The notes beneath the pieces were generated by a model that was not told where the DNA came from, did no database searches, and was given only the letters and a program-made list of their open reading frames with translations. A DNA stretch of 57,269 bases, the filler included, from Globobulimina sp. (lineage: Eukaryota): NCBI GenBank assembly GCA_003354225.1. It is 5 parts of 5 records of this genome, joined end to end, with 100 filler letters (N's around TTAATTAATTAA, not from the genome) between each part and the next. Parts side by side here need not be neighbours in the genome. Positions count along the whole stretch, not along the records: positions 46,307 to 57,269 come from PIVH01000017.1; 4 more parts are not named here. The stretch is one strand, 5' to 3'. The position numbers and the translations under genes are program-made. Of this stretch, positions 11,868-57,269 are shown one piece after another; position 1 is the stretch's first letter, and every line of letters begins with the position of its first letter.

Positions 11868-12170
11868 ATGGGTTGTCTTATTGAGTCAGAAACGGCAAGC
11901 GCTGGCGATAGAGTTGCGAGTTGCACCAAATCTCCAAAATCCACAAACGTCGGTATAAAAAGCGAAAATGAAGAGCTTATCCCAGCAGTTAGCATTACTT
12001 CAACAACACCAAGTCAACTGAGACAAGCATCTGAACTGAAATCACAAGTCACAGACTCAATGGAAATGGAAATGAAAATGAGTCAAATACGTCAATTAAA
12101 AGTAAAACTGAACCCAAATTTACCAGATTTACCGATTCAAATTCAATATTCAAAAAGCGAATATATAACA
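11868..12170 (+). CDS. Hypothetical protein with N-terminal MGC (possible dual acylation), truncated by contig end
   Basis: ORF starts MGCLIES, 53 bp from the divergent TMEM131-like start, and runs into the linker. Confidence 0.45.
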
Positions 12171-12270
12171 NNNNNNNNNNNNNNNNNNNNNNNNNNNNNN
12201 NNNNNNNNNNNNNNTTAATTAATTAANNNNNNNNNNNNNNNNNNNNNNNNNNNNNNNNNNNNNNNNNNNN
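12171..12270. other. Artificial contig linker
   Basis: N44-TTAATTAATTAA-N44, stops in all six frames. Confidence 0.97.
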
Positions 12271-19951: not shown

Positions 19952-22900
19952 TTATTGTCTAATATGAATATTCCTATTCCTGTCGTATTTGTACAAGGAT
20001 CATGTGATGAATCCGTCGCTATAATAAGGTCATGGGGTTTTAATTTGTGTTTATCATTGTGCCATTCTGTGATATTTCTGTTTCTGTTATGATATAAGGG
20101 CATCTTGCTAGGTATTGTGGTGTGTTTATTTCTCATTCTAGTCAGATTTAATTTGTTTTCATGCACACGGTATATATTGTACAGCCATCTGTGAGTCTCC
20201 GATATTAAATTGCGATATAAGGTGTATTTGGTGATATTTATGTTTATGATACTGTGCTTATAGACAAACTCATTGGTCTCAGTGTCATACACATTTGCTC
20301 CACAGAGCACTTTCCAGAATTGCGATTTTTGGACATTGACATTACGGCACATTTCAATTAAACGTTGCATATATAATTGGTTATGGATTTTATTGACAGC
20401 AGCACCATTTTGGGCAAAGGTGAAGCTTGCATGGAACCAGTATTCCTGTCTCAACTCATTCAATATTGGACACATCACTGCCAAGTGTAATTCCAGTGGT
20501 TTATTGATGTTATTATGGCAGAGATTGCAGTATGCTGTATGTTGATTAAAGTTATAAAATAAGGCTCGATATTGTTTAATCATTGGTGCTGTTACATAGT
20601 CAGCTAATTCCTCCATTTCATATATATTCATTGGTCGATAGTCGCTGGTAACATGGTTTAATACCTTTAATGGATGATATTTATTGAGTCTATCGAGGAT
20701 CCGTTGGTGCTGTGTTGTTATTATGATCGGTCTTAATTCATGTGGTCGGTCAACGATATCGAAAGGATCGGACATTTGGACTGTATTTTGTTTTATTTGA
20801 CTGGTTACTGGCAGCCAATCTCTTTTCAGTGCTGCATACTGTTTGTACAATTTGTGATGGTTAATATGGGACAACTGGGCCCATTTATGCATCAAGGATA
20901 CATTGGGAATATGTAACAACTTCCAATAAAACACCAATTTTAAAGTGACCCATCGTTCAAACGGCGTTGGGATACCAGCCCAAAGATATAGTTGTTCAGG
21001 GACAAAATCTGATATTCTGGTTTGTATACGAATCGCATTGAGTTGTTTCTGGTTTGCCTCTTCTAAGTTTATTTGGTCACTGTCCAGTACTTGGGCAAAA
21101 ATCTCTGTGTAAACCAAATAGAATGTTTTAAGGATACGGATTTTGTCATCGAGGGAGACAAAATCATGATTGAAATCCAACGTGGCCAAAATACGCGCTT
21201 TGTTGTCAAGTTTTTTTAGAAAGTGTTTGTTAGTGTGTACAGTGGAGACCAAATTGGCGTCATCATAGCTGCATAGCATGGCACCGAGGTAGCGCATAAA
21301 CGTCGAGCAGTGTAGCTTTGCTCCGTTTAGTCGTAACTTTAGATGCATAACCGATGGGCTATAGTCACGGTCATAGCGTATGTTATGCCACATTATTGGA
21401 AACGGCTTGTTTGTAATATCACCATAGAAGTTCACATGGTCCACAAACAGCTTTAGATGATATGTCGGGATCTCCTCTGTGTTATATGCGTTAATTTGAT
21501 TATCAATATTTATGGCCATTATTTGATTATTTATCGGTTTTTGTATTAGTATCATCGGAGCCGGCTTGTTATGGTGATCAGCATCAGATTGATGATATTC
21601 ATTGTTTATTAGGATGATGTCATTTATGTTATATGTATCAATATTATTTTTATTAATTGTAGCATCATTATATATCATTGTTTTACACTTTTTATGATTG
21701 AATTTGTAATTCCATCGTTCACTGTGAGCTTCACATATTTTTATCGATTTATGTAAATGCGAGATTTTATTTGCAGTCAGTATTATATCATCAGCGTAAA
21801 AAATGCACGCTATTTTTTCATCGGTGTCTGGAGAGTACGCACCATTGCCAGACGCTTGTAACTCAAAAATCATATCATTGAGGAACGCTGCATATAGCAC
21901 AGGGGACAGGACCGAGCCTTGTAAGACACCGTTATGCAGCATAAATTTATTAGATATAAACGGTATGTCCCGTATCGCAGCGTGTGAGTCATTGTAAATT
22001 GCTTTGATTATTTTACAAAGATGCACAGGAATATCGAAGTCATTGTGCAGTTTATAGATCAGCCCCTTCCGCCAGACAGTATCAAATGCTTTTCGTATAT
22101 CTAAGAGGGCGCAGTACAATGGAATGTTTCGCATCTTTGCTGTTTCAGCTATCAAGTTTAGTGCACCTATTTGTTCTGGTACCCCTCTTCTAGAGCGGTT
22201 GCCACCTTGTAAGATGTGCAGATTTGCTCTGAATTTGTGCTGTATGCACATTTCCCACAGTACCAACCTTTCATACGCTTTAAATATTATAGGTAGCAAC
22301 GTTATGGGTCGATACTGGTTTGGTGTGCAGCCGTTTGGTGTTTTTAATATCGGGATAATTGAACCCAAACGAAAGTAGAATGTGATACAAAAAGTGTTAT
22401 TCCAGACATTATAGAGTGTGCACAATATGTTATTTATCATTGGCTGGTTTGTTTTAAGGTGGACAGTTTTTATGCCATCGTATCCCGGCGCACTATTAGG
22501 ATTTGCCTGTTTTATTGCAAGTTCAATAGATTTAAATTTACTAATCTCAGGTTTAGGTATATCTTCACACCGCTTTTTCTCCTCACTTTCTTGTGCCGTG
22601 CTGCGATCTGGGAAGTATCCAGGGGTTTGTTGTTGGATCGCCATTATTACGTCATCGTCGCTATTGGTGTCACTATCCATGTCATTTTCGAGATTATACA
22701 GTTGGTCCAATATAGGCTGCGTCGGGGGAAGGTAATTGGGGTCAAAATGGGGAGTTAGAGTGTCATCAACCTCCTCTTCATCAAGAAACAGCATGTTATC
22801 GTTAGGTATTATGGGCGTTGGCTGTCTTGGCTTTGTGGCGTTGTCGTTGTGTTTTTGTATATTAGAGGTTTGTAGGTTTTACCAACATTTTAACTACAGA

Positions 22901-23014: not shown

Positions 23015-23901
23015 TTACGTAAACAACAAAAATCGTTCTTTTATTATAAAAATATCACAACTTCCATATTGTGCATGATTCGCTTTTCCAATTTGTAATT
23101 TATATCCACATTTTAAAAATTTATCATTATATTTCTTTATTAATAATCTTAATGATGATAAACTATTATTCGATGCTGAAGCAATATAAATACGTTTCAA
23201 TGGCCAATATGATAATACCTTATAAATATCCAATAAAATTTCATCTGTGATCATTATTGATGGGCAATACCTATGATCATTATTTTTTGATGAATATTTA
23301 ATACACAAAATTGCTATTTCACTTATTTGAGGAACCAATTTATGGAAAACCTTGAAACGAATCCAATTATTTGAATGCATAAATAATGAGAATAACTTAA
23401 TATATCCATATTGGGGACCAAAAAAATTGGATGTATAAACTAACTCTTTTTTAAATAATCCAACATTAACAAATATGCGACCAAATGATTTTAAAATATG
23501 ATTAAAAATATGTATAATATATGGTGGAAGCGAGGATGTATTGGTTTCAATTGATTTGGATGATGATAATTTATAATTTATTAACTTTAATAATAAACTA
23601 TAATATGGATCACATAAATTATCAGCAGATACGTGACCACATAAACAAGTTTGTAATACTTTTATGGCTATAATATATTTGTCATAAATTATATTCGATA
23701 CTAAATCAATTAAACCAATTATTTCTAATGTCTGAAATCCAGAAATAAAAAGCATTTCTGCCTCACCTGGGAAATCTGAAAATGATCTGCAATCAAAATA
23801 ATTAATTGCATATTTATCATTTTTAATTGTTAATACAATCCCAATCCCATTCGTTGCATAATGTACAGCAATGCCTAAAGAAAGAGTGGTTGATGTCGGT
23901 G
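23015..23901 (-). CDS. ART-like (S-T-T and ExE motif) protein, 5' truncated by contig end
   Basis: Frame open upstream of 23755: 'PTSTTLSLGIAVHYA.NGIGIVLTI..YFDCRSFSDFPGEAEMLF'. Confidence 0.55.
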
Positions 23902-24001
23902 NNNNNNNNNNNNNNNNNNNNNNNNNNNNNNNNNNNNNNNNNNNNTTAATTAATTAANNNNNNNNNNNNNNNNNNNNNNNNNNNNNNNNNNNNNNNNNNN
24001 N
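23902..24001. other. Artificial contig linker
   Basis: N44-TTAATTAATTAA-N44. Confidence 0.97.
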
Positions 24002-25371
24002 TTTTGTGCCTCTGCTATTTCAGTCCTTAGTGTTTCTTCATCATTTTGTTTCGAAGTATTAACCACAACTTGCAATGGATTGCCATTGATATCAATTATT
24101 TCATTCTTGAAATGTTTTTCCGATGAGCCTTTGCGACGTAATAATGGACAACAAATATACATAAATGAATTTGGAGCAATAGCACAACAGCAATCTGATT
24201 GTTTGTATGTCGACATTATCAAAACCAAATCAACGGTGAAATCAAATCCAAAATGGCCAAGGTGACTAAATACAGTCGGCCACGGTGATACATTCAGCGG
24301 CAAAGTTGCAGTGAAATTTGTGTTTAATAAATGAATAATTAAATGATAGACTGTGTAAATACACGATGCACACAAAAATATGATAGCTATGATCATTGAC
24401 CGTTGCACTCTTTGCAACTTTTTCAGAGATATTGCATCAGATTGCTCACTGGATATTGCTTTGTTTATTTGTTCCACGCGTTGTATTGTCATAATATTTT
24501 CCGTATTCGTTAGCATCTTTATAACCGGCATGGAAGCTTTCCGCTCAATCTTCATATTCTTGTTATTCTCAATCTGATCATATACAAATTGTGAATCTTT
24601 GCGTTGGATCTCCTGTTTTATTCGTTTTCTGATATTGATTGATAATTGCTTTGATATCATTTGTTCTTCAAATGTTTTATCGTTTAAATGGTTTATGTGC
24701 GACAATGAGTTTTTGCCCAATTTGATGATCTTATTCAATCCAACAAAAAGAGACGTAATGGGAATGAAAACACCAACGCATACAGCAATAAATAAAATAT
24801 CTAAGAATAGATAATAATATGTGATGAAAATAGCATCGTTGAACATATATGCAAAACAATAACAGAATATGATCACAACCTATATCAGAAACAGATAACT
24901 TGTTTAAAATTATAACATAAAATTAGTGAAACAATTAACTGTATGAAGAAATAAAACGAATTTGGTCATTGTAGCAAACCATTTGGGAGCAGAATCCGGT
25001 TTTTCTGCTCGCGATTTGTATGCGGCATCAATACTTCGGTACGCTACGTTTAACAGAATGATGGAATTACAAATTATTATCCATGCAGTAAACAGTCGTA
25101 CTGTGGTTATGAGTTTTACATCATGTGGTCGATGATAATGACTGTGTTGTTCAAATGTAAGTAATATGGGTTAATATATGGTACATGGATACCTTATTAA
25201 TATGCATGAAAGAATCCAAACATTCATACAATAGATTGATCCTAAGCACCTATAAAATATTCTTGGACGATCAGAGATTGCAGAAATGCAAACTTGTTGC
25301 ATTGAGAATAAAAATAATATTCCCAATACAATGCAACCACCAATTGGATACTTCATCGGAATGAGTGACAT
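24002..25371 (-). CDS. Multi-pass (possibly 7TM/GPCR-like) membrane protein, multi-exon, 3' truncated
   Basis: Hydrophobic helices in 25171-25371, about 24950-25140 and 24002-24876; long loop before the last two helices and a CCC cluster after the last; intron AG|GTATCC..CACAG. Confidence 0.5.
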
Positions 25372-35079: not shown

Positions 35080-35179
35080 NNNNNNNNNNNNNNNNNNNNN
35101 NNNNNNNNNNNNNNNNNNNNNNNTTAATTAATTAANNNNNNNNNNNNNNNNNNNNNNNNNNNNNNNNNNNNNNNNNNNN
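35080..35179. other. Artificial contig linker
   Basis: N44-TTAATTAATTAA-N44. Confidence 0.97.
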
Positions 35180-37917: not shown

Positions 37918-39833
37918 ATGAATTATTCCCCAAATAACAATAATGCAGCTGTATCAATATGGTGTTGGCAGGATGATGATGGTGAATATAAACCATATCC
38001 ATTGAATATTTCACAAAAAATACATACATTGAATGTAGGTGGGATGTGCATGCTGATAATATCAAACATCCAGTATGAAATTAAAAGAGTGTCTGCTGAT
38101 GCTGCGGTCCAAACAAATATGAACGATGGACTTATTCGATTGGTTATTCTTCAAACTAATAACATTTCAAATACTAATTCTTCGAACTATCATTGGTATT
38201 GGCAATATAATAAATCCTATAAACCATTCAATGCGAATGACTCGAAGAAATTGGATAAATTAAGTGTTGGCGCTTCATATGCAATGTATATACGAGGCAC
38301 TAAATATGAAATTAGGAAAACATCCAACGATTCTGGCAAACAGACAAATACAAAGACTAACACTCAACGCAATATTTTTCGAAAAATAAAATCCAATGAT
38401 AATCAGTTATGTGCATTATATTATATTTATATGTAAGTTATGTTACAAAATTGCATGACACAGAACTGACAGAAGTACTAGTGATGATTATAAAAATGAG
38501 GCACAATGCGAGAATGTGTGGTGTTGGGATAATAATGGATCATATAAACCATATACAAAAGCTATATCACAAAAAGTAGACAAACTACAAATTGGACAGA
38601 GCTACACCACGAAATTTGGGAATGATAGTTATGAAATTACCAAAATAAGCAACACAAAGTGTCAACAAAAGAATATGAGGACACAATTTGCAAGAAATGT
38701 TACGCTCCAATCAGCACAAAATGATCAGGATACGGAAGATGATAAAGAGGAAAAGCAAGAGTTAATTGATTTTATTGATTTGTTGTTTAAAATAAATATT
38801 TGACAACACACAGAGTGGAAAGGTGGTATTGGAAAAACGATAATGGTGAATTCAAACAATGTGGGTATAATATATCAAAAACAATATGTGGATTGGCTGT
38901 GGGTGATATGAAAAAGATAAAAATCCAAAATAAATGGTATGAATTTAAGAAAACAGGCATTGATAAATGTGCTCAAACCAACAGTAAAACTGGTAAAATA
39001 AGAGAGGTTCGCGTGGCAGTCTATGGGTGGTATTATAAGGCTTCTGATGGTACGTTTATGTCATATACAGATGAAGTGAATAAACAGTTGGATTCCGCGT
39101 CAATTGGAGATACTGTCACATTCTCTGTAAATAAAAATAAATATTGTGTGACAAAAAAATCAAAGAACAGCGCTGAACAAAATAATATATCGAGTAACAA
39201 GAAACGAACCATTCTTCGACAATTGGCGCTGAATAAAGATGCTGGAAATCGGAATATTGTTCCTAAGGACAAAGTGGATGAATTATTCCATGCATCGGTA
39301 GCAAAATCCCATAACATCACAGAAGTGCAAGATTTAACCAAAAATAGTCAAAATTCAGTTATTTATGAAAAAATATTACAAGAAAAATGTAAGCATGGAC
39401 GTAAAAGAGAAAAGGTTGAAATGTATCTATGGCACGGAACTAAGGACTTAAGTAATTTAAAATTGATAATAAAAAATGGTTTTGATAGATCCTTCAATAA
39501 GGCAGCGGCATATGGCAAGGTGTGTTGATCCAATATATTATATAAAATTGTATAAAAGAGATACAATAAAAGGGGACTTATTTTGCGAAGGAGGCTAATT
39601 ATTCAGTATCGGGCGGGTATTGCGGTAAGGATTCATCGAATGTGCATCATATATTGTTATGTAAAGTAATTGTGGGCGATTATACTGTCGGGAGCAGTTC
39701 GACAAAATCAATTCCAACAAAGGCAGATGGCACAGAATATGAGACATTGGTGAATAGCAAAACAAATCCGACAATATTTGTGGTTTGGAGAGATTATCAT
39801 GCTGTTCCTTGTTATTTGGTGAAATATAAATAA
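37918..39833 (+). CDS. PARP-family mono-ADP-ribosyltransferase with five WWE domains, multi-exon
   Basis: Five 'WxW....YKPY...Q.N..T...R' units; 'YLWHGT', 'YGK|GTYFA' across intron 39520-39572, 'LCKVIVGDY', 'PTIFVV', 'PCYLVKY'. No catalytic Glu. Confidence 0.88.
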
Positions 39834-40102: not shown

Positions 40103-41826
40103 CAATGACGATCCCGAACGATTACTACGCCGTTTAAATTACCTCCAACAAGCTTTAGAACAGGTGATCTTATATTAAACCTCACGCAAATTCGCATACA
40201 AACCACAACGGCAACATATAACAAACCAAACAGATAAAATCATATCAACACAATTCCAACTTTCAATACGTAATAAAACATTTTAACATTGAATTAAGCG
40301 AATCAGAACAAGAAGAAATGCGTCAATTATCCCATTTATTCGATGATAGTAAATTCCAATCCGCGCATAACAAAAACAAAGGAAACGAGAAATCAGGTTT
40401 TACCACACAACGAAGTGAGACTTTATTCACTGGCGCCGCTGAAGAACAATACGGCAATTTCTACGGCTCTGACAACGACATTGACGACGAGAAAACGCCT
40501 CGAAATAATGCCGCCCTCTCTGCGCCACAATGGATACATTATAAAGGCTTTGCCCATTGGTTAAAAAAACAGTCCTTCATCAAATTTAAAAAAAGAAACG
40601 ACATTGAAAAATATAGAAAGATATGGAACACCGTGTTGGGATTAAATTTAATTAACCAATGGGATAAAGGCAAAATAAAACCGATGAATATCATTGGAGT
40701 TTAGTGTGCTTTTCATGTTTTTTATATGTGCTTTACTTTGACTTTAACCGTATGATAACACACAATATACACATAGCGATATGGTACGATTCAGCCATAC
40801 ATAGCCGTCCATAAATGCGGCAGCAAAGAAATCGTCAAAGCTTCGTTATTACGCTTATCGATTACACAGAACCGGATATTTAAATTTAACGTCGACACCG
40901 CCAATATGGACACCACTGCGGCCACCAAAAGCAGAGCGCGGAGGAGCATCGATATGGACGTCGACAATGAGAACGAGGACGAATATAACGGCGGATATAC
41001 ACTATCGGCGAACGAGTTAATTCAAGGACGCAATTTGTTTGATTTAGTAAGCAACAAAGACGTGTTACGTATCGTAGCCACTATGCTATGGGACACCAAT
41101 TTGGCCAACAATGTGTTAGAAGAGTTATTGCATAATCCGCGCTTTTCTATGTACGGCATCCATGCGGATAAGATCGCCGATACCATCGCAAAAGAGATGC
41201 GTTTAAATTATAGCTATGACAACGAAGAAACACCGGTGACGCCGCCCAATAATATGAATGTGAATGCGACTGCCACTGAGAGCGTGGAGCAGTTTGCCTT
41301 GCCGTCGCCGCAAAGAGCTGTGTCGTTACAGAAACAAAAGGAAATCAATCAAAATGTGAATTATAGCAAAGGGCCATCTGTTGCTGGCGGCGGAGGCGGA
41401 CAAGTATACAGTCCGCAGTTTGAAGACAATAACGATAATAATGATAATAGTTATAAACCTAATAATGCTCCAAATGCCTTTTCATTTCAGCGACCAAATA
41501 CTAATAATGATAATAATAAAAAAAATACTAAAAAAACAGCCAGCGACCATGCCCGCTATGAGCAGCAGAAGTATATGCAATCTGTGCCGGAGCAGGAGCC
41601 GACGCCCAGCCCTGATCCGCATGACTCGGCCGATGCCAATGAGCATAAACCACATCACAAAGCACATTCGGCTTCGGTGGTTTTTCATGATAATATTCGC
41701 GATTCGGAGATTAATGACTATGGCGCACATAATAATGAGTATGATTCACATGATGCCTATGGCGATGATGATGAATCCGTGTCCAATTCTGCTGAAATGC
41801 CCCAACAGTATGTACAGTACACGTGA
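40103..41826 (+). CDS. Hypothetical multi-exon protein
   Basis: Co-oriented ORFs 40318-40704 and 40906-41826 with GT-AG-bounded AT-rich gaps; start uncertain. Confidence 0.5.
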
Positions 41827-43675: not shown

Positions 43676-45371
43676 ATGAGTGCACGAACAAAGAAGCAGA
43701 AGAAGAAGAGTCGTAAAAGACGTCGAGAAGAGGCAATGGATGTCGATGTCGATGTGAGTGTAATAGATCAATTAAAAGGATTAGGATTTACCCAACAACA
43801 AATCAATGATGTTTTCAAAGACATCGATGATGCGGACCGTGCTGCTCAATTTGATACGGCATTGGAATTATTATTAGCAAACAACGAACAAAACAACAAT
43901 AACAACAACAACAATAATCTGAACCCACCACCATCGCCCCCAAACAAACGACGCCGAATCGACGATATCATTGATCTGGATCCGGATGATATGGATGCAA
44001 ATAATACCTCTGAGGAAGAGAAAAAATCGCAAAATGACTCGAGCTCAAAAAAAACGAATCTCGAAATGAAAGAGGAAGCATTTAATAAACAGAAACAAGA
44101 AATGGAAAAACACGAAAATGAATTCAAAGCTTGGGAAGCACAACAAATTACATTATCTAAATCGTTAAACGAACTCCGTGATAATATAAACAATTTATAC
44201 TCCAAAAGACCTGTCATCACAGAAAAGGAAGACGACGTCGCAAAATTGAAAGGCATCATCGACTATGCTTATAATGCTATGAAACAACACTTAGATTTTT
44301 GTAACAAACGAGTGGACGATGAATTTGTGAGGAAAGAAAGCAAAAAACAAAAATTAGATAACGAACGCTTTTCGTTTGAACAGAGTTTAAATGAATTTGA
44401 ATCGCACAAATACGCCTTACAATTAATGCAAAATCAAGTTAAATCGGGTACCAATGTGATGAGTTTGGTGGAGCGCAATTTATTCATTGTCGCCTCCGCC
44501 ATCAATGGCAATCAAGAAAACGTCGATAATGACCATTTTAAACAGTTAAACCGAAAAATCAAAGCAGTGCAAAACAATTCCAATTCAAAGGAAGAAAAAA
44601 ACGACGAAAAGATAGAGTTTGAGTGCGGCATTTGTTTCATGGGTCAGCTTCTCTCCATTTTAGTGTTTATTCAATGTGCAATGTATAAAATATATACAGG
44701 TTACAGTGAGTTATCGGACATATTGATATTTGACGAATGTTACCATTATTATTGCATGGAGTGTCTCGGCGGATGGTTGACGGCAAAATTGCAGGATAGA
44801 AATGTGAAAAATATCACCTGTCCTTTCGAGAAATGTTCGCATAAATTGCGACATCAAGAAATCAGTTATATTTTAAGCAAGGAAGAGTTCAAGAAGTTTG
44901 ATGAATATTTGCTGGATAAAACCTTGCAATCGGCCAAAGATTGCAGGTTTTGCCCGGGTGTGGATTGTGGAACAGCCATGTTTGGCTATCAAGACTCGCC
45001 AATGTTAACCTGCCCGAAATGTAAAAAGCAGTTTTGTTTTAATTGTGGTACCGAAGAATGGCATAAAGGCGTAACTTGTTCGTGATTATATTGATATATT
45101 TGTGTATTATGCAGTGTATACAGTGCAAATTGTTTGTGTTTGTACATAGGCGAAGCGTTTAGGAAATGGAAGGAAGAGAATGGAAAAGTGGATGTGAAAT
45201 TTGATGAGTGGGTCAAGGGCCAAAATGCGAAGCAATGCTCGCAGTGTAACTCTATGATTGAGAAGAATGGGGGTTGTGATCACATGACTTGCCAGAATTG
45301 TAAGTATGAATTCCATTGGGTCACAGGCGAGAAATGGAAGGGATATCAACATCCATATAATGTGCCGCAGA

Positions 45372-46206: not shown

Positions 46207-46306
46207 NNNNNNNNNNNNNNNNNNNNNNNNNNNNNNNNNNNNNNNNNNNNTTAATTAATTAANNNNNNNNNNNNNNNNNNNNNNNNNNNNNNNNNNNNNN
46301 NNNNNN
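46207..46306. other. Artificial contig linker
   Basis: N44-TTAATTAATTAA-N44. Confidence 0.97.
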
Positions 46307-47223
46307 TATAATATATTACCACCCAATAAGTCACTATGTGTAAACACAAAATCAAACATAAAATTAAATGCAATTTTATTCGACTTATTTGCTAAATGTT
46401 GTTCCACCATTTTTTTTGTGCCATCCGCTTGTTGTTTAATAATAAAATCAAATAATTTATCCACATTATTGTTATTTTTATTCGAGGGCAAAAACGATTG
46501 CATAATATCCATTTGTTTGGGTATATTGAGCCAATTTAGCTGTTGATATTGTTTTTGTTTATCAGAGTTGTCTTTGAATTCGATATTGGATGCAATATTA
46601 TACCATTTATCCATTGTTGGCCATAATAAAGACTGCGAGCTTTCATTTTTTAATAATAATGGCTGTGTACTATGCATTTCAGCCAATGTGGCACAGACTT
46701 TCTTGCAATGTTTCCGTTCATGTAATTGCAGAGTAAGTGCGTTATCATACCATTGTTCAATGCGGCCATTACCAAATATGCCATATAATTTTGGGCCGAA
46801 TGCTAAGTTTCCTAATTCATAAAATAATTTCTCTTCGCGATCTCTGTCAATCAAAACTTCGGTGTTTTCTCCGTAAACACGAACTAATAATTTCTTGCAT
46901 GCTTTTTGTGCATCATTTGCTTTGTTGTCGTCATTGCTTTTCATCTCAATATTTTTGGGCGTCATTAAATACAATAAATTGGTAATTCCACCTTTAATTA
47001 CAGACAATGAATAGTTCGATTTGGAGACATCTGTATCATTGTTATATTGTTCATTGTTTAAAGGGAATAAATGATTTGCCACATAATGTATATCTTTTAT
47101 TAATTGATGTTTATCTTTATAATCTATTTTGAATTTCGTTTGTTGCGCAAGGTCACTTAAGTCATTTACAACTGGTGGTATTTCATTTGTTTTCGACTCT
47201 TCACAATCTGTCTTCTGTGCCAT
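46307..47223 (-). CDS. Choline/ethanolamine kinase, 3' truncated
   Basis: 'GGITNLLY', 'LVRVYGENTEVLIDRDRE', 'GPKLYGIFGNGRIE', Brenner motif 'HSDLLGGNIL'. Confidence 0.9.
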
Positions 47224-47273
47224 TAGAATCTGGCGTTACCAATCAAAAACTCAAAGTTAGTCAGAGCGGTGTA

Positions 47274-49407
47274 ATGGCGTCGTGCCAGTGGACAAGTTTT
47301 ATATCAACACGCACACAAAATATCTTTCGTAACTTCTTTTCATGGCTTGGAGAGAAAATATATGTACATTACTGTTGGTTCATTGCAAGTGGCTTATTAT
47401 TAACGCTCATTTGTGGTGCTATTGGAGGCAGCTATTTCTTACTTGTGTGCCCAGATACGAACTGCATTGAAAATCGTTCGTACCATTTATGGATACCACG
47501 CAATGCCAAAGTATGGGATGAATATAGCACAATTATTGATCAATTTGGGTCATACCCATCAATCTTAGCGTTGCTATTAACAACAACGAAAAACGGTGAT
47601 TCTATCCTAACGCCATCAAACATGGACACAGCATATGATATATTGCATCATGTCAATGACATCACACTCGACTACGATGCAGATAAATATCAATTTGATT
47701 ATGATTCGCTGTGCTTACGCTCATATCCAACCGCTCCATTTTGCACATCTGCATACGAGAATTTCTTTGGGTTTATCTTTGGAGCAAACGCGATGTTGTG
47801 GGACAATGAAAGCACCATAGAACAATTTGTCAATGTTCCCACAGCTCCGATTGAATTTTTTTTGGGCGGATTTGAGTATGGCGACCTTGATAAGGACTAT
47901 ATTGTTGGTGCGAAAGCATTGCGTTTAGCGTATGCTTTGGAAGGGAGTACCAATGAGACAGTGCGTGAGATAGTATATGGATTTATGGGGAAATGGTTGG
48001 ATTATTGGCACGAACATGTGGATGATTATGCAGATGATATACAAATTGTATACTATGCAGATAGATCCTTTGATGATGAAATATCGCGTGTGGTCATAGG
48101 GGATTTGCCAATATTTGTAGCGGCTTTGTTTACGATGGGGATCTATTTAATGTTTACATTGGGTAAATTAACTTGTGTGGCAGCGAGACCCTGGTTGGCT
48201 TTGACCTGCATAGCTACTATGATTTGTGCGTTAATTGTTGGTTTCAGCATATCGCTGGTTATAGGCACTACATTCAATACGGTTGTGATGGTGGTGCCAT
48301 TTGTATGTCAATCTATTAACATTTTGACATTTTAAACTGTATATTGGACCACATATTTGTCAATAAATTATAAGGTATTGCTCGGAGGTATGGATATAAT
48401 GCATATTTAAATTACATTTGTTTATGAATATAAATATATTAATATTGTTTAGTTGGCGTGGACGATATGATTATTTTAGTGGATGCTTACAGTAAAACTA
48501 AAATGCCGGATGATGATATATTGAATGCACACAAACGTTTAGGAAACGCATTGGCTTCGAGCGGATTATCAATCTCATTGACTTCAATCTGTTCATCCAT
48601 GGCTTTTTTTGTCGGCTCTGGTATGTTATTCCCGCAGTGATATTTGTGCAAATCTAGAATATATTCGACAGCAACGGACATTCCCGGCATTAGCTCGATG
48701 ATGGTCTATGCGGCATGGTCCTTTGTAGCAAATTATGTGTTACAGTTTTTGTTATTTGTGCCGTTAATGGTGATGGACGAGAACCGGATGAGGAAAAGAA
48801 AAAATTGTTGTTGTCCCTGTGTGTGTATTCATGCTGAAGTCGCGGATAATAATGAGAGCAAAAAATGGAATGACTGGTGCAACGTCGAACAATTAGTCCA
48901 ATATACATTGGTACCATTGATGCGGAAGAGAGTATTTCGAATTGCAATTATATTATTTTTCTGTACGACATTTATTAGCTCAATATACGTGGCCCAGTTT
49001 CTGAACACAGCCTCTGATGTTTCTAAAATAGTCCCGGACGATTCCTACGTATTAGATTATTTGGAGAAAGCACAAACTATTTTTACCGGTACTCATGTGG
49101 GTGAGTTACAAATCATTATCCAAAATCAAGATTTTTCTGACAAACAAGTAAGAGACGCTATTGTGTCTATGATGGCTGCATTGGAGGCAGAGCCTGACGC
49201 GTTGGGAACGACTACGAATTGGTTGGGAGATTTTGAAGCTTGGTTACAAATTAATGGTGAAAATGTCGATGATTTAGGATCTAGTGAGTTTTATGCGCAC
49301 TTAACGCACTTTGCAAATGATTCAATAAATGCTGTCTGGCATTCAGAAATAGTGTATGATGATGTTACTAATCCGACGCTGATCAAATCCACACGATTTG
49401 AACTAAA
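47274..49407 (+). CDS. Patched/NPC1-like sterol-sensing-domain protein, multi-exon, interrupted by the retrotransposon
   Basis: 'RSFDDEISR', 'RPWLAL', 'GVDDMIILV', 'SGLSISLTS', 'IPGISS', 'PDDSYVLDY'; donor AAA|GTACGT at 49408. Confidence 0.85.
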
Positions 49408-49451
49408 GTACGTCCAACATTGCTTGTCAAATATATATTATATTCATTATG

Positions 49452-49634
49452 ATTATAATTTAACTAACAAAAGGTGCAAGAAGTACAGTAAAATAATATT
49501 AATTTAATTTAGTTTATAATGGGTCAGTTACAGCAGTTTTAGAACAAACGGGAAAACAATATAATATTATAAAATAATATTAATTGAAACAGATGGAATA
49601 GAATTGAATACAAAGAAAACTATTTCATTAATCC
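49452..49634 (-). repeat. Split direct repeat B2
   Basis: 183 bp matching 49782-49965 with one indel and one substitution. Confidence 0.95.
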
Positions 49635-49653
49635 TTTGGGTGTGGAGGGTGGG

Positions 49654-49781
49654 AGTAAAAGGATTGACGAAGGAGAGTGAAGTAAAGTGACTAAAGATAA
49701 AATAATGTAAGATAATAGAAACACTTTCTAAAGTTAAGAATCATAACACTGCGTTTTATATGTAAACAAATAAAACTCCGA
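49654..49781 (-). repeat. Split direct repeat A2
   Basis: 49654-49751 identical to 57172-57269 (98 bp); the remainder is presumed to match beyond the window. Confidence 0.9.
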
Positions 49782-49965
49782 ATTATAATTTAACTAACAA
49801 AAGGTGCAAGAAGTACAGTAAAATAATATTAATTTAATTTAGTTTATAATGGGTCAGTTACAGCAGTTTTTAGAACAAACGGGAAAACAATATAATATTA
49901 TAAAATAATATTAATTGAAACAGATGGAATAGAATTGAATACAAAGAAATCTATTTCATTAATCC
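49782..49965 (-). repeat. Split direct repeat B1
   Basis: Copy of 49452-49634. Confidence 0.95.
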
Positions 49966-50066
49966 CCATTTGCCCGCGTGTAACGGCTCAAACTTTTAAT
50001 GGCGCCTCGAATGTAAGAAAGTTTGTGGAGGCAAATCATTGATTGGTAGTGAGTGTAGCAATTTAT

Positions 50067-51428
50067 TTATTGGGTGCGCTGTTTAAGTCGGCGATTTTTT
50101 ATCTGTTGAAAGCAGAATTTCCTGTCTTCCATTTTGGCCCAAGGGTCAAACACTACACTGGATTGGAGGAACTGTCGGTTTCGGGAGTTGGGATCTTGGG
50201 ATGGTCCATGGATGATGTCTCGAACCATTTTACTGAGACAGATTGCATCCGGCCGGATATATGTCATACTAATATCGGGCAACTTGGAATCGCTCCATCC
50301 AACATATTTCAAAATGAGGCCATGAGCTATGCCGACCTGAGAGGCTCGTGTTGTACCACCAATTCGAGCACTGTAAGATGAATAACGTTTGGTTTCAAGG
50401 ATATAGGTCGGGTTTGCCGCGACAACTTCTTTTATGATCGTAGAGAGGGCAGTGGTGTTAACCACTTTGCCATTGGACCAAATAAAGACATTATTTTCAG
50501 ACGAGAGTCGGAGATTATGTCTGCGAATACTCTCACTCCTACCGAGGGAGGAAAGCAATTTCTTGCGACGCTGTAAGTATACCTGAAGCAATCGCAATGG
50601 GTTGAGAAGTTTGCAGGGACAGGATTTGTTAAACCGCAGTGTTTGGGTACAATATGAGCTGCCTACATACAGGAGCTTGGAATCTTGGAGCGATTTCATG
50701 GATTTGTGAGAAACAATTTGGATTCGGACATAATGTGTTGATGGTTTGGACGGATTTGGTTTAAAAAAGGCAATATGTTTAAATTTGACGCCTTTTTTTG
50801 TTTGGGAATAAGGAGACCGCAGCAATTCGCATGGTCTGGACATCGTAAAAAAGTAAAGTTGAATAATAAGGACTTTCAACAAGATATCGAATGAAATGGT
50901 ATCATATCTATTGATAACACAGTCGGATTTCAAGGTATAACGAATCAAATGGTCCAATTTTAATGGTAATCGAGAGTCAGAGCGTTTGTCATAACGTTTC
51001 ATTGCGGCGGACTTAAAACGTAAATATTCATTATTTGTATTAAAGTAAGGATCAATGTCCGCGGCTTCATGTAACCATAGGATCATTGATTGAGCCTGGC
51101 GAACACAGTTTGTATTGCCAGCTTGTTGGATGCGATCAGCGATCCAAAAAAGGGCCAACGAAGCATTAGTAGGTAGCGCAAAAGGGCTCTCTTTTAGCGT
51201 GACACAGTAAAATACCCAGTTTCTCAAATGTGAGATATATTGGATCTTAGTTCCCATACATTTGTCTAAATTATTTGTCTCGACAATAAACTCCGCAGTC
51301 TTTGGTCTTTTCTTTGCGAGATAGTGAGTTTCCGCAAAGCGTTTTCTGTACCACTCTGAATTAAAGAAAAGCAAAAACACACAGTCAGTAAATGGCACTT
51401 TTAAACGCAAACAGAATAAAACAGTCAT
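50067..51428 (-). CDS. Tyrosine recombinase
   Basis: 'MSRPCELL', 'SHKS', 'YSSYSARIGGTT', 'VGWSD', 'MTYIR'. Confidence 0.9.
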   Translation of the reverse strand: MTVLFCLRLKVPFTDCVFLLFFNSEWYRKRFAETHYLAKKRPKTAEFIVETNNLDKCMGTKIQYISHLRNWVFYCVTLKESPFALPTNASLALFWIADRIQQAGNTNCVRQAQSMILWLHEAADIDPYFNTNNEYLRFKSAAMKRYDKRSDSRLPLKLDHLIRYTLKSDCVINRYDTISFDILLKVLIIQLYFFTMSRPCELLRSPYSQTKKGVKFKHIAFFKPNPSKPSTHYVRIQIVSHKSMKSLQDSKLLYVGSSYCTQTLRFNKSCPCKLLNPLRLLQVYLQRRKKLLSSLGRSESIRRHNLRLSSENNVFIWSNGKVVNTTALSTIIKEVVAANPTYILETKRYSSYSARIGGTTRASQVGIAHGLILKYVGWSDSKLPDISMTYIRPDAICLSKMVRDIIHGPSQDPNSRNRQFLQSSVVFDPWAKMEDRKFCFQQIKNRRLKQRTQ

Positions 51429-53317
51429 AATGTAAAGTTTGCTGCGTAATTGGGATAACCCCTTCGTGCCCTTTCTTTAATAGGTAAACACAGAAAGGCA
51501 ATGAAGTCCTGATATTCCTGACAGTCATAGTCAAGATCTGCCAAAGGATTTTTTGTGGCATTAATTTGTTTATTTAAGAATTTAAAATTGGAGAAATAGC
51601 ATGTTTCGGTTTTCTCCTGAACCATGGAAAGATTATATGCATTTACAATGGACCAGAAATCATGGAATTTTAATCTGGACAAAGCATCGGATAATCCATT
51701 GGAAGATGAGGATACCCAATCAATCCATACTAAGAACTTAAATTCAAGCATTAAATGGCACAATTCATAGACGAATAACATCAAATTATACGAAGAAGAC
51801 CATTTTCGGCGGAAAGCATAATAACAAGACTCATTGTCTATGAATAAATGGATGGTTTTGCCAGTCAAATAATGGCGAAATGTATATAACGCTGATAACA
51901 TCACATGAGCCTCTTTCTGAGTGATATGCCAATTGGCTGTATGGTCCTCATTAAAGGAATAAAAAGACCAATAACCACCCACTACAAAGCCACCATGCGT
52001 AGAACAGGCATCTGTTGAGGCGGAAATGGACATTGTTTGAGTCATTAAAATCTCGGACATTGGAACTTGTAGTATTTGATCAGCGTAAAAATACCAATAA
52101 CGCAAATCATTCAAAATGGACAATGGCAATATAAAATAATCACTTTTGGAATATATGCCAGATCGGATATTGGCATGAATGAAATGTAACAAATTCCAGC
52201 ACAGTGCTTTTGTTGGTTGGCGTAATTGTGCCCAATGCATTATAGTGCCACAAATGGACTCAAGTGCAGCACCGGTAATAACTCGATATTGCAATGTATA
52301 GAGGATCAGCTGCTTGAAATTACGGTATTTAATTGGAGGAATTCCAATCATTTTATTACATAAATCAAAGGAGACTCCATATATAACAGCTGATTGACAA
52401 GTTCTTATAAAACCTGATTCTTTGAGCGAAACCTGAACATTAAGTTCTTTCATCAACGCATCAAATCTGGTTTCCATTTCGACACAGTCGGCTTCTTTGA
52501 ATGCAGCTAAAACAAAGTCGTCAATGTGAACCAATGTCTTTCCTCTCCATTCTTTGTCATATATTTTATTATCTAATATCCAAACTAAAATCTGTGCAAA
52601 ATATTGGGAGTTTGCAGGGGCTGATGCTACACCATAAGGCTGCTTACGATCACGCCAAACTAAACCAAACAATGAATAACAAATGTAATCACTATCTTCT
52701 TCACAAAGTCCGATTTGGCGAAAGAAATCCGACAGATCACGAATTGCAAAAAAATTGCAATCAATCAAAGTGCGAACATATTTTTTTAAGTTTGGCAGGG
52801 AAGGAATCTTGCATTTTATCGGGCGAATCAAGTCATTGATGGACGAGGTCGATTGTGTTTTAAACGATCCATTTCGGATCACACGGAACTTAGTATATTT
52901 GCCCTGACCGTCTTTCTTCGGAGTGCAGAAAATCATAATCATATAACGAGGGTTTCCAAAGAATGGCTCAATTTGTCCGTTCTCTGCCTCAGCAATCATT
53001 TTATCTAAAATCGCGATTGCTTCTTGCGGTGTATTGGCAATATTGGATATTTTCGTGGATAAATGTTTATGGATTACATGTGTTTCACGCTGACGTTTAG
53101 ATTGAAAGTGCGTTTCTAACCACAAGGGGAATCCAACGGTAATCCATTTAATGTCGGATTTCGCTTTCCGTTTCCCTTGAAGATATTTAGTAAATGCCGG
53201 AATGTTAAACTGGTTTTTAAAACGAGAGGGTTCATTATGTAGTTGTGTTAACCTATCGAGTCTAGGCTGGAGTTTCGCCGCGAAGCTCTGATCGAATTCT
53301 AAGAATGTAAAAAACAC
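51425..53317 (-). CDS. DIRS/Ngaro-type reverse transcriptase-RNase H
   Basis: 'KFRVI', 'SINDLI', 'DLSDFFRQI', 'PYGVASAP', 'HIDDF', 'STDACS', 'HITQKEA', 'FIDN', 'NGLSDALSR'. Confidence 0.93.
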   Translation of the reverse strand: MFFTFLEFDQSFAAKLQPRLDRLTQLHNEPSRFKNQFNIPAFTKYLQGKRKAKSDIKWITVGFPLWLETHFQSKRQRETHVIHKHLSTKISNIANTPQEAIAILDKMIAEAENGQIEPFFGNPRYMIMIFCTPKKDGQGKYTKFRVIRNGSFKTQSTSSINDLIRPIKCKIPSLPNLKKYVRTLIDCNFFAIRDLSDFFRQIGLCEEDSDYICYSLFGLVWRDRKQPYGVASAPANSQYFAQILVWILDNKIYDKEWRGKTLVHIDDFVLAAFKEADCVEMETRFDALMKELNVQVSLKESGFIRTCQSAVIYGVSFDLCNKMIGIPPIKYRNFKQLILYTLQYRVITGAALESICGTIMHWAQLRQPTKALCWNLLHFIHANIRSGIYSKSDYFILPLSILNDLRYWYFYADQILQVPMSEILMTQTMSISASTDACSTHGGFVVGGYWSFYSFNEDHTANWHITQKEAHVMLSALYTFRHYLTGKTIHLFIDNESCYYAFRRKWSSSYNLMLFVYELCHLMLEFKFLVWIDWVSSSSNGLSDALSRLKFHDFWSIVNAYNLSMVQEKTETCYFSNFKFLNKQINATKNPLADLDYDCQEYQDFIAFLCLPIKERARRGYPNYAANFTL

Positions 53318-53502
53318 ACTTCAGTGAAATGTAAAGGTCGGGTAATGGGTACTGGTTGGTAGTGAGTCGACGTACTGCGTAGCAAGGTAGACTGGTATGT
53401 AGTAGGTAGATGAAATGAGATTACTTACTATAGGCATAATACTCACACATATACATAAATATATAGATGGATATGAATACAAATCAGTAACACAGAAAGT
53501 CA

Positions 53503-54567
53503 TTAAAAACGAATAGAATCAAATTTGGCGATGAATTTCTTATAAATATTTGGTTGAGACTTGGCTGTCGAGCACGTTTTGAACGTATGATTTTGGTCCG
53601 GGTGAAAGGCACATTTGTGCTTAAATCGTGCGTCCGGCGATGGTTCGCATTGATTGCGAGGATTTTTGCAATCACCAAAGGCAAATTTGAACATGCAAAT
53701 ATCACTGGGACATGTGGCACCATATTCAGACATGCAATCCCATGTCACATTGCGTAATAAGGTCATATTATCAGATGATTGATAGTATGAAGGCGGACGA
53801 TTAGCGAATGATGGCCGACGAGTTTGGTTTCGTTGTCGGTCATGATGTGATTTACGAAGTGGTTTATCATCGCTTTCATGATCTTGTTCACGACGATTAC
53901 CAGTATGACGCCGACCTTTTTTATAAGCATTGTTGTGATGATTGGTATTGTCGGTTGGCGGTTGTCTGTGATTTGTGGATATGCGATTTCTGCCATCAAT
54001 GAAAATGTTGAATTTGCGATCATTTTCAAACTCATTCAAATTAAATTGGTCAAATGTCGATAATAAAAATTGCACAACGCTTTTCTGTGTGGTATCACTG
54101 AACGATTGAATAACAGAGTTATTGTCCATTAAAAAACAAATTGGCACATTACTGGCCATGTAATCGTTCAATACGTCAATAATGGTGGACCAAAACGTGA
54201 TGACTTTGCTATACGGATTCCGGACAAATGGGGCAATTTTGCTACGGAACATTTGGATGTTGGCCTTAACCATTTGGACCCAACCAATGAGTAAACGGGT
54301 AAATGATCTCGAATAAGGGACCGTATTTAATGCAGCGAGGACAAAATCCATCGCATCACTCCATGCATTAAGGATAAAATAGAGCGATAGCTTCGATTTA
54401 AAGGCAGAGTATATCTCTTTGGACGTGGAGCTAATATCAGATAAGTTATAGGTGTCGGACATGTATTTGAGTGTAGAATGCAACAACTTAGGGATTATAA
54501 TCTCATCCGTTGCAAATCCGGTAAAAAACTGAATAATTTCATTTCTTGTTTTTATTTTCTTTTTCAA
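53503..54567 (-). CDS. Gag-like protein with C-terminal Cys/His knuckles
   Basis: Position before RT; 'CMFKFAFGDC......C........HKC..H...H....C'. Confidence 0.7.
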   Translation of the reverse strand: MKKKIKTRNEIIQFFTGFATDEIIIPKLLHSTLKYMSDTYNLSDISSTSKEIYSAFKSKLSLYFILNAWSDAMDFVLAALNTVPYSRSFTRLLIGWVQMVKANIQMFRSKIAPFVRNPYSKVITFWSTIIDVLNDYMASNVPICFLMDNNSVIQSFSDTTQKSVVQFLLSTFDQFNLNEFENDRKFNIFIDGRNRISTNHRQPPTDNTNHHNNAYKKGRRHTGNRREQDHESDDKPLRKSHHDRQRNQTRRPSFANRPPSYYQSSDNMTLLRNVTWDCMSEYGATCPSDICMFKFAFGDCKNPRNQCEPSPDARFKHKCAFHPDQNHTFKTCSTAKSQPNIYKKFIAKFDSIRF

Positions 54568-55039
54568 TGCAGAATTGACTAATTATTTAAATATATGTGT
54601 GTTTGAATGATAATCAGCAATTATACAACATTTTGTATAGGAACATTCGCTTCCTTTCAAGCCCAGAATGTTTTTAAAGTATCACATAAAACTGCGGCCG
54701 TTGCAGTACGTCGTTCAAAAAGTATTTTGAGTCACAATAAACACGGATAAACGTATACAAACTACGGGTACAATACAAACTACGCAGAGAATAACCGAAG
54801 GCACTAGAAAACACCGTACTTTTTAGGACCTAAAAAAGATCCAAGAATGAGAAAGGCTGTATCATTCTATGCTGTACAGAGACCCAGCTGCAGTACCGTG
54901 CATTTCCTGAAAAGCCAACCAAACCCACCTCCGAGAAAAGTTTTAGTAAAAAGTTTTGGAGAGACGTGTCAACAAATTAAGGTGCCAGAATAGGAGGAAT
55001 ATTTTAATTATGCAAACACGACAATTAAAATAACACATA

Positions 55040-56140
55040 TTAAATGGATAGACCTTCAACTTTATTGACCAACTCCTTATTAGAGGCGGTATCGGCTCGC
55101 TTGTTGCCATTCATCTTCCTCTGCATAATCTCCATAACAATTTGTTGATGCGTTCGTGTTTCTTCTTTGGCCACAGTTTGCGCCAAAAATATTGCTGCTT
55201 CCTTATCAACGGTGCGATCAACAGTGAGTGCCGAGATAGCGTGCGATTGCAAAGTAATAAGCTTCTTCTTCGGACTTTCATGCTGCGAAAACATATAACG
55301 ATTATCGGATTTTTTCAAATTATGCGCCATCCGATCAATTTTGGCATTCATATTATCGGCCATTTTATCAATTTTATCATCAAATAATGCCCTCTGGGCT
55401 TGCAATAATTTGTCGGTATCTTCGTCATTGTGTTTCTCATCAAAATGTGAATACGGATTGTCGGAAACGTCGGATTTCACACTGTGTAGTGGCGAAGGCG
55501 GGGAATTGGAGAGTACTGAACGGCGGAACTCTTTCTGTCGTTTCTTGCCATGGCTGTTTCGTTCATGATTACCGGCGAAGAGGGCCATTTTGGATGCTTT
55601 TCTTTTGATCACTTTGCGGAAAGACCGGATTTGATCATAAATGACGCGATTTTTAAAATACGGACTGTTCCATTTCTTCAATTGGTTACCTTTGGAATCT
55701 ACGTATTTGTCATTGCGTAAATAAGTGATACGTTCTAATAATTTGGGTACCAACCATCGCCACCAAAATTCTTTGATTTCCTCTCTTTTGTATTGATGTT
55801 TATAAAATACCACATAAATAAGGTCAACAACGGACCGTTTGTCATCGGACTTTGATGAGTCAATAAATAAACGATTGTAATGCATTGAATATAACATATT
55901 GAGGGATACGCCGGTCATCACAATATTATCCAACAAGGCGATGAAACCAAACCGACGCTCTTCATTGTAACACTGCAACGTTTCTGTTACAGATTTACCC
56001 GCATTGACCATTTCATCCATGTTATCTAATAAATTGGCGAAGAAAATGCGTGATGATTCATACAAATTTATCAAATTATCGGTCGGCTTCGGTTCATCGA
56101 GAGTTTTCTGGCGGGACCGCAAAAAATTGAGTACAGTCAA
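55040..56140 (-). CDS. Retrotransposon ORF2, unknown function
   Basis: 366-codon ORF inside the A1-B1 interval; TTG start only at its 5' end. Confidence 0.7.
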   Translation of the reverse strand: MTVLNFLRSRQKTLDEPKPTDNLINLYESSRIFFANLLDNMDEMVNAGKSVTETLQCYNEERRFGFIALLDNIVMTGVSLNMLYSMHYNRLFIDSSKSDDKRSVVDLIYVVFYKHQYKREEIKEFWWRWLVPKLLERITYLRNDKYVDSKGNQLKKWNSPYFKNRVIYDQIRSFRKVIKRKASKMALFAGNHERNSHGKKRQKEFRRSVLSNSPPSPLHSVKSDVSDNPYSHFDEKHNDEDTDKLLQAQRALFDDKIDKMADNMNAKIDRMAHNLKKSDNRYMFSQHESPKKKLITLQSHAISALTVDRTVDKEAAIFLAQTVAKEETRTHQQIVMEIMQRKMNGNKRADTASNKELVNKVEGLSI

Positions 56141-57129
56141 TGCATCGGTTCGGATTCCAAGACCGCATCAAAGGAATACTCGGATTTCGGCGGTACATAT
56201 ACTGCAAATGGGTCAACACTTAAATCCATTGGTTGCCGAGCCGGGGATTCATTAATGATATACCGCGAATTCTCTGTAGTGTAAAATGGTGGTTGGTGCG
56301 TATTGGTATTTGTATTCTGGGTTTGCATAATTTCTTGGGTTTGCAAGGTTTCATGGGTTTGCACAGTGCGAACCGTTTGTATGTTATCACGTCGATGGTT
56401 CGTTTCTGGATTTGTCTCCGGCGATTTTGGTGTGTCACCCTCTCGTTCTTTTTTGTCGGATTCCTTGGTATCCGCAGCATCACTGTCGTCAGAGATGTCT
56501 ATTATTGAGGAATTTGATTGTTGGGATTGGGAGCCAGTAACTCCAAAGGCAGGATGTTGAGAGAGGGTAAACGCTGCATCGATAGTTACTTCGTCAGCAG
56601 ATTCTTCATTCGCGTTATTTGTGTTACTGTTGCTGGGTTTTTGTGTTTGTTTATCAGTTTCCAAGAGAGGAGATGTGAATAAATCATATTGTAATATCAA
56701 TCTCTTATAATTCACCCAATCCCTTGAATTTCGAAATGTAGCCACCTTATCCACCGCCACCTGTTTACAAAATGCGGATATTAATTCTTTGACGGGACGG
56801 GATTGGTTATCAGGTCTTGCCATCGCTGCGTCATGCTTCACTTTCAAACGATTTAATATTGCATTGTATGACGAAGATTGTGTTGGCATGACATAAACAA
56901 ATTTATTCGATTTAATATAGGATAGCATCGCTTCATAATCCTCTTTAAAATATTTGAGCGGGGCCGCCTTTGGATCCTTTAATGGTTGTTTCATTAACGA
57001 AGGAGTCAGGAAGAATAGCTTAGGATCCTTCTGTACCGTCTTCGCAAATGCGTCGAATGCTTTGATGGTCATTGTCAATGCCATTGGATAATTTGCTGCA
57101 GGTAATTTGCTACGGATAGAGCCAATCAA
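56137..57129 (-). CDS. Retrotransposon ORF1, unknown function
   Basis: 330-codon ORF directly after A1; first ATG at MALTM. Confidence 0.7.
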   Translation of the reverse strand: MIGSIRSKLPAANYPMALTMTIKAFDAFAKTVQKDPKLFFLTPSLMKQPLKDPKAAPLKYFKEDYEAMLSYIKSNKFVYVMPTQSSSYNAILNRLKVKHDAAMARPDNQSRPVKELISAFCKQVAVDKVATFRNSRDWVNYKRLILQYDLFTSPLLETDKQTQKPSNSNTNNANEESADEVTIDAAFTLSQHPAFGVTGSQSQQSNSSIIDISDDSDAADTKESDKKEREGDTPKSPETNPETNHRRDNIQTVRTVQTHETLQTQEIMQTQNTNTNTHQPPFYTTENSRYIINESPARQPMDLSVDPFAVYVPPKSEYSFDAVLESEPMH

Positions 57130-57171
57130 TGATGCTGTTGTTCGAGTTGAGTCAAGGCGTTGCCGCCAGAA

Positions 57172-57269
57172 AGTAAAAGGATTGACGAAGGAGAGTGAAG
57201 TAAAGTGACTAAAGATAAAATAATGTAAGATAATAGAAACACTTTCTAAAGTTAAGAATCATAACACTG
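57172..57269 (-). repeat. Split direct repeat A1 (partial)
   Basis: Identical to 49654-49751. Confidence 0.93.

Follow-up and report, generated by a model that had tools for sequence, protein, structure and literature searches.

Tyrosine-recombinase (YR) retrotransposons are among the least understood retroelements, and the expression of their reverse transcriptase (RT) and YR is largely unexplained. Within the DIRS order, the available sections of two descriptions define Ngaro elements by split direct repeats that flank the open reading frames (ORFs) in the order A1-[ORFs]-B1-A2-B2 (PMC8547959, PMC13465315), and the missing methyltransferase domain is given there as separating them from DIRS1-like and PAT-like elements. 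DIRS-1 of Dictyostelium is likewise a YR retrotransposon, and the accessible part of one report states that its transcript is spliced when an artificial intron is inserted (PMC7192593). In a fungal survey, as far as its available text goes, YR ORFs are in frame or frameshifted relative to RT. Here, we describe an Ngaro-type element in a 57,269-nucleotide stretch of the Globobulimina sp. assembly GCA_003354225.1 (hereafter, the window). Its Gag-like, RT/RNase H, and YR ORFs appear to lack start codons of their own and, judging from comparison with relatives, may be expressed by cis-splicing from a single donor at the end of an upstream protein to three acceptors, a reading to which we give a probability of roughly 55%.

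The element lies on the minus strand, extends from beyond position 57269 down to 49452, and is an Ngaro-type tyrosine-recombinase retrotransposon, classified by its repeat order, which is that of Ngaro elements, and by its domain content. Five long minus-strand frames occupy it: ORF1 (57258-56137), ORF2 (56167-55040), a Gag-like ORF (54582-53503; hereafter, Gag), RT/RNase H (53320-51425), and a fifth, YR (51476-50067). Relative to the frame that precedes it, each of ORF2, RT, and YR is read in -1, and two of the pairs overlap. ORF1 and ORF2 are the two parts of U, an extra upstream protein of about 700 residues that belongs to no known family. The original prediction for this locus held that phase-matched introns link all five frames into one spliced polyprotein.

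Candidate splice sites and their conservation

Nine related loci from one scan of metagenome contigs served for comparison. They represent about six lineages, their RTs are 35-77% identical to that of the window, and the whole comparison rests on ten sequences. The key comparator is L001, in which the RT is 72% identical, every ORF is open, and the order is the same as in the window; a 119-nt overlap between the ends of its contig shows it to be a complete unit of 8014 nt. Scans of viral contigs and of genome contigs returned no relative. A search for longer, fused RT homologues (1106-3155 aa) found none, a search for ORF2 homologues (204-650 aa) also found none, and a protein atlas gave no usable match for ORF2.

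The intron proposed between ORF2 and Gag (intron 1 in Table 1) has good support, as far as comparison alone can test it. In each of the four lineages in which this region is visible, U ends in the motif [DE][LV][LV]x[EK][LV][EQ] followed by a phase-1 GT, and the candidate donors read G↓GTCTAT in the window, G↓GTTTAT in L001, A↓GTTAAT in L009, and, in textbook form, G↓GTAAGT in L004 (↓ marks the junction). The homology of U stops exactly at this GT, after which 3, 3, 0, and 24 unrelated codons, respectively, lead to the stop. The window and L001 have a phase-1 GT in common in 3 of 393 aligned U columns, one of which is the U-end donor; over 8372 codons, a phase-1 GT occurs at a baseline rate of 0.0377 per codon. 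In the window, L001, and L002 alike, 2 nt plus 9 codons separate the A↓G before Gag from the conserved motif TR..IQFFTGFAT. A donor near the start of U or in the 5' leader was rejected, as GT is absent from the first ~32 codons of U in L001.

Intron 1 contains a non-coding block that is nearly invariant among the window (54807-54906), L001 (2670-2775), and L002 (1-100), while identity in the flanking proteins is down to 39-56%. It can fold into two predicted hairpins, without covariation, and belongs to no Rfam family. As the rest of the window, including the terminal repeats, contains neither a match nor a complement to the block, we rejected the idea that it is a copy or complement of those repeats. 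The depth bin that contains it (54672-54932) is the highest in sequencing run X1. Retroviral packaging signals are located between the donor and gag, and the position of the block recalls such a signal.

The putative acceptors before Gag, RT, and YR are supported by a comparison of 22 ORF starts (6 Gag, 8 RT, and 8 YR). At every one of them, the conserved coding region starts with a G-initial codon preceded by A, which gives a phase-1 A↓G. The residue at the boundary varies (V/D/E, E/D/G/V, and E/A, respectively), yet its codon is always G-initial, which points to a constraint on nucleotide rather than protein sequence. Position -3 of these sites is a pyrimidine in 20 of 22 cases and never a G, and a T-rich tract precedes most RT and YR acceptors. 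In a control on the interior of the three protein alignments, A↓G was shared by all sequences at 0 of 1102 well-occupied columns. The RT acceptor is conserved in phase and position in eight loci, and, N-terminal of the RT domain, conservation sets in at the acceptor; the A↓G of the YR acceptor is conserved in eight loci, down to 24-26% YR identity. CTRA-like motifs occur about 27-33 nt upstream of the sites in the group of the window. The branch-like motifs of the original prediction are indeed there: CTGAC at -33 of the YR acceptor, CTGAT 39 nt upstream of the Gag acceptor, and, in one host intron, ACTGAT about 30 nt before the AG.

It was also correct that ORF2, Gag, and RT have no ATG at their 5' ends. 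The first Met of ORF2 comes about 48 codons in, and the first ATG of the window's Gag and RT lies 39 and 100 codons past the respective acceptor. Across the loci, this distance is 89-124 codons in six of eight RTs, 17-130 in Gag, and 23-116 in seven of eight YRs, and the open frames begin merely 0 to ~40 codons upstream of the acceptor sites. The spacers between the ORFs are non-coding and variable in length (62-645 nt), and they contain stops in all frames.

All four GT..AG pairs of the original prediction exist (56163/56108 in phase 0; 55053/54579, 53510/53299, and 51459/51356 in phase 1). With donors allowed in the last 30 codons and acceptors in the first 45, there are 8, 10, 13, and 5 frame-compatible pairs at the four junctions, so this sequence taken by itself does not set them apart from chance. 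It is only the comparison with relatives that raises the ORF2-end donor (4 of 4 lineages) and the three acceptors (22 of 22 starts) above chance; it does not lift the ORF1>2 pair or the donors at the ends of Gag and RT. The comparison thus shows candidate splice sites that are conserved in position and phase across lineages, at some of the proposed junctions and not at others.

The 56-nt intron between ORF1 and ORF2 is refuted. L001 has a single 784-codon ORF over ORF1 plus ORF2, and L009 a 761-codon ORF in the same place. The first ~190 residues of ORF1 align with the start of the L001 ORF (39% identity), ORF2 is 39% identical to L001 residues 394-784, and from about 56155 the ORF2 frame aligns with the L001 protein straight across the proposed intron; a N.L..RQK.L stretch within this match spans the proposed acceptor. 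An intron does not fit because the frame switch is confined to about 12 nt (56167-56155). We read the break as a -1 frameshift in this copy, due either to a mutation or to an assembly error. Programmed -1 frameshifting was rejected, as the overlap has no visible slippery heptamer. The terminal repeats are identical, as in an otherwise young copy, and the break falls where relatives have one ORF. A perfectly matching contig of sequencing run X1 ends exactly at 56155.

Proposed expression by cis-splicing and its alternatives

The arrangement suggests that the phase-1 5' splice site at 55053, four codons before the U stop, would join the phase-1 3' splice sites at 54579, 53299, and 51356. Alternative use of this one donor would yield U-Gag, U-RT/RNase H, and U-YR fusion proteins in a retrovirus-like manner, and the unspliced RNA would yield U alone and serve as the template for reverse transcription. 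We infer from site conservation that splicing takes place and that the U-end donor feeds the RT and YR acceptors as well. The introns would persist in genomic copies because unspliced RNA would be the template, and a shared donor would require acceptors of equal phase; the one-donor scheme would account for the shared phase, the lack of start codons, the conserved Gag and RT stops, and the retained introns. The data agree better with the suggestion in the original prediction that equal phases permit in-frame joining of any kind than with a fixed serial polyprotein. Intron-less copies were not seen, and no proposed intron was matched among 15 of 34 contig joints (sequencing runs X1-X3). More tentatively, and with the odds against it, an Ngaro-like clade comprising this genome and the metagenome contigs may rely on alternative splicing, as retroviruses do, to produce its full set of replication proteins, with the conserved element of intron 1 marking or regulating the unspliced RNA as the template for packaging or reverse transcription.

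Several points weigh against expression from a single donor. It implies introns of ~1.75 kb (RT) and ~3.7 kb (YR), whereas the host introns definable in the window measure 31 to about 145 nt (mostly ~31-80), and a 700-residue N-terminal fusion on RT and YR would be unusual. The Gag acceptors have no pyrimidine tract, as is also true of host acceptors of the ACACAG type. Phase 1 is the commonest AG phase within these ORFs, which makes phase alone weaker evidence, and the boundary columns were picked by eye; MAFFT placed the RT boundary in one column for four of the five sequences that reach the RT start, and the YR boundary within about one column. The fifth codon before the RT stop is xGT in L009, L004, L005, L006, and L008 (TGT, CGT, GGT, CGT, and CGT, encoding C, R, G, R, and R) and is not xGT in the window, L001, or L002; by our own arithmetic from the baseline rate of 0.0377, the chance of this coincidence is ~6e-5 to 2e-3, and these five loci may thus have an RT-end donor and splice RT to YR serially, at least to some extent. 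Additional donors in some of the lineages, in a mixed scheme, are compatible with the data. Finally, with U frameshifted, the copy in the window may be unable to express the fusions itself. The weakness of the element's donors does not count against splicing, since host donors are just as degenerate (GTTCGT, GTTTGT, GTTAAT, GTTTAG, GTATGT, and GTAAGT).

The RT-end codons also bear on serial splicing, in which introns of 475, 212, and 104 nt, with none between ORF1 and ORF2, would be removed to give a U-Gag-RT/RNase H-YR polyprotein, partial splicing setting the product ratios. GT..AG pairs of matching phase are present for it, and short introns suit a short-intron host; a phase-1 GT also occurs within the last five sense codons of Gag in five of seven loci, beside the five of eight with one at the fifth codon before the RT stop, and stops come soon after these GTs, as at the U end. 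However, three of the five Gag-end GTs belong to the TGT of the last zinc-knuckle cysteine, and in the complete L001 neither the final 30 codons of Gag nor those of RT contain a phase-1 GT. The window's own Gag-end (53510) and RT-end (51459) donors, which lie 2 and 11 codons before the respective stops, are not conserved in the alignments: the RT codon GGT is GGC in L001, and the Gag Arg codon is Lys (AAA) in L001 and L002. Past the supposed donors, protein conservation of the Gag and RT tails extends as far as the stops, whose positions are conserved too, and L006 and L008 differ there by synonymous changes. Pfam identifies no protease for polyprotein processing, and one phase for three introns would be a coincidence of about 1 in 9. 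Serial splicing thus seems improbable, and of the Gag>RT and RT>YR introns in the original prediction, the acceptors stand (eight loci each) and the donors do not; the single polyprotein from four serial introns is unsupported.

Expression without any splicing would involve separate translation through internal promoters or subgenomic RNAs, non-AUG or downstream-AUG initiation, reinitiation, or frameshifting. The -1 frame relations and overlaps described above are in keeping with it, as are an ATG that overlaps the RT stop in the window (ATGA), an ATG 1-2 codons after the A↓G in the RT of L006 and L007 and the YR of L005, and the available parts of Ngaro and DIRS descriptions, which mention overlapping or frameshifted ORFs and not introns; the conserved block that precedes Gag could act as an internal promoter. 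Yet the stops in all frames of the spacers rule out frameshifting and readthrough, which we rejected for Gag to RT because the RT frame of L001 has four stops there, and reinitiation at the ATGA was rejected as the overlap is absent from L001 and L002. Starting at the first ATG would drop 20-120 conserved codons in most loci, and neither the A↓G kept with a varying residue nor the end of U homology at a phase-1 GT in four lineages would be explained. We consider this account unlikely. Trans-splicing occurs in some marine protist groups, and three acceptor-like sites of one phase with no nearby ATG could also receive a spliced leader of the host, which would bring the start codon in a fixed phase. 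This we regard as very improbable: the U end has a conserved cis donor, host genes in the window have ordinary cis introns, an Rfam scan of 49300-57269 gave no sign of a spliced-leader gene, and a leader that provides ATG plus one base is an ad hoc assumption.

Element layout and genomic context

Table 1. Positions of the element's features and of host introns in the window.
Feature	Position	Strand	Remarks
Terminal repeat A1, element 5' end	57172-57269	-	98/98 identical to A2; cut by window end
ORF1, N-terminal part of upstream protein U	56137-57084	-	ATG 57084-57082, stop 56139-56137
Zone of required -1 shift, ORF1 to ORF2	56155-56167	-	~12 nt
ORF2, C-terminal part of U, to proposed 5' splice site	55054-56167	-	frame continues 3 codons; stop 55042-55040
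Proposed intron 1, 475 nt	54579-55053	-	phase-1 donor G↓GTCTAT at 55053; acceptor TTAG↓ ending 54579
Conserved non-coding block inside proposed intron 1	54840-54906	-	~70 nt; second short piece to about 54807
Gag-like ORF, putative acceptor to stop	53503-54578	-	stop 53505-53503; homologous ORFs in L001, L002, L009
Spacer after Gag, non-coding, ends in putative RT acceptor	53299-53502	-	T-rich tract, CTTAG↓ at 53299
RT/RNase H ORF, putative acceptor to stop	51425-53298	-	stop 51427-51425; Pfam and 29 homologues
Spacer after RT stop, ends in putative YR acceptor	51356-51424	-	CTGAC at -33, T-rich tract, TTCAG↓ at 51356
Tyrosine recombinase (YR) ORF	50067-51355	-	profile search and catalytic residues
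3' repeat block (B1 49782-49965, A2 49654-49751, B2 49452-49634)	49452-49965	-	B1/B2 99-100% identical; A2 = A1
Host introns	36554-36528, 38436-38459, 38760-38815, 40700-40780, 45078-45149, 48621-48671		short, degenerate donors, often GTT...

The element is a young copy in a short-intron eukaryote with an AT-rich genome, and the window contains no second copy of it. The 5' terminal sequence of its A1 repeat is also present in L001. The RT ORF matches Pfam RT_RNaseH at 26.2 bits, above the cut-off of 24.8, and RVT_1 with E=1.8e-4, below the cut-off of that family; most of its homologues carry PF00078. Distant Gag relatives end in a C-x(1-2)-C-x4-H-x4-C zinc knuckle. As a single sequence, YR has no Pfam or PDB match. 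A profile of 40 family members, taken from 287 homologues in a representative library, matched the PDB integrase 3nkh (E=2.2e-8) and Cre (~1e-4); 17 of the 40 match PF00589, and R173, K217, W353, and Y365 are invariant and R330 nearly invariant in the family. An AlphaFold model of YR from a six-sequence alignment reached a pLDDT of 40.7. Pfam searches identified no family in ORF1, no methyltransferase in any of the five ORFs (E up to 0.1), and no protease or integrase families in the element, and Rfam gave no match in 49300-57269 (E up to 1). Between Gag and RT, positions 53321-53518 (minus strand) form a 65-codon open stretch in the RT frame that overlaps the Gag stop and has one TGA before RT.

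The neighbouring host genes are ordinary eukaryotic ones and encode an ion channel, an AAA ATPase, an RBR ligase, and a sterol-sensing-domain protein. The last of these, a Patched/NPC1-like gene at 47133-49507 (plus strand), runs into repeat B2 at 49452; the element may lie inside or at the end of this gene, its other flank being beyond the window. An unrelated retroelement at 19855-22878 (minus strand; 1008-codon ORF, RVT_1 E=1.3e-27) is probably a non-LTR retrotransposon. Short runs of N, translated as X, break several host ORFs (about 12170-12220, 23900-23955, 24830-24880, 35080-35130, and 46255-46300).

Comparison with known systems

The element shares with Ngaro the split direct repeats A1-[ORFs]-B1A2B2, the order Gag-like, RT/RNase H, YR, and, as far as the available sections of the Ngaro descriptions go, the lack of a methyltransferase, a protease, and a DDE integrase (PMC8547959, PMC13465315). 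It differs from Ngaro in its extra ~700-residue upstream ORF, in having non-coding spacers of about 70-660 nt instead of abutting or overlapping ORFs, in the lack of start codons in Gag, RT, and YR, and in its conserved splice-site-like signals and non-coding block. DIRS-1 is different in that it has inverted terminal repeats, an internal complementary region, overlapping ORFs, and a methyltransferase domain, and the accessible part of its description describes no natural intron. Neither natural introns nor natural splicing of Ngaro or DIRS elements is described in the accessible text of the papers covered by our literature search, whose scope left out the founding papers and reviews (Goodwin, Poulter, Butler) and supplements. 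If the one-donor scheme is true, this lineage would depend on host splicing and would have taken an independent, retrovirus-like route to several proteins from one genomic RNA, and ORF-based annotation pipelines would miss the real protein products.

Several LTR retrotransposons use splicing, among them Ogre in legumes, copia in Drosophila, and BARE in barley, and Penelope elements retain introns. The element described here would resemble them in that functional introns are kept and splicing sets the product ratio. It differs in that they belong to a different order, have one intron as opposed to three acceptors, and lack a phase-locked set of junctions. In retroviral alternative splicing, one major 5' splice site is combined with several 3' splice sites, and the unspliced RNA is the genome. 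The proposed scheme is alike in its donor upstream of the structural genes, its acceptors directly before the downstream genes, its retained introns, and its conserved element between the donor and gag. Unlike in retroviruses, the donor lies within a coding exon, so that junctions would have to be in frame and would create fusion proteins, RT would need splicing rather than frameshifting or readthrough, and a tyrosine recombinase would carry out integration.

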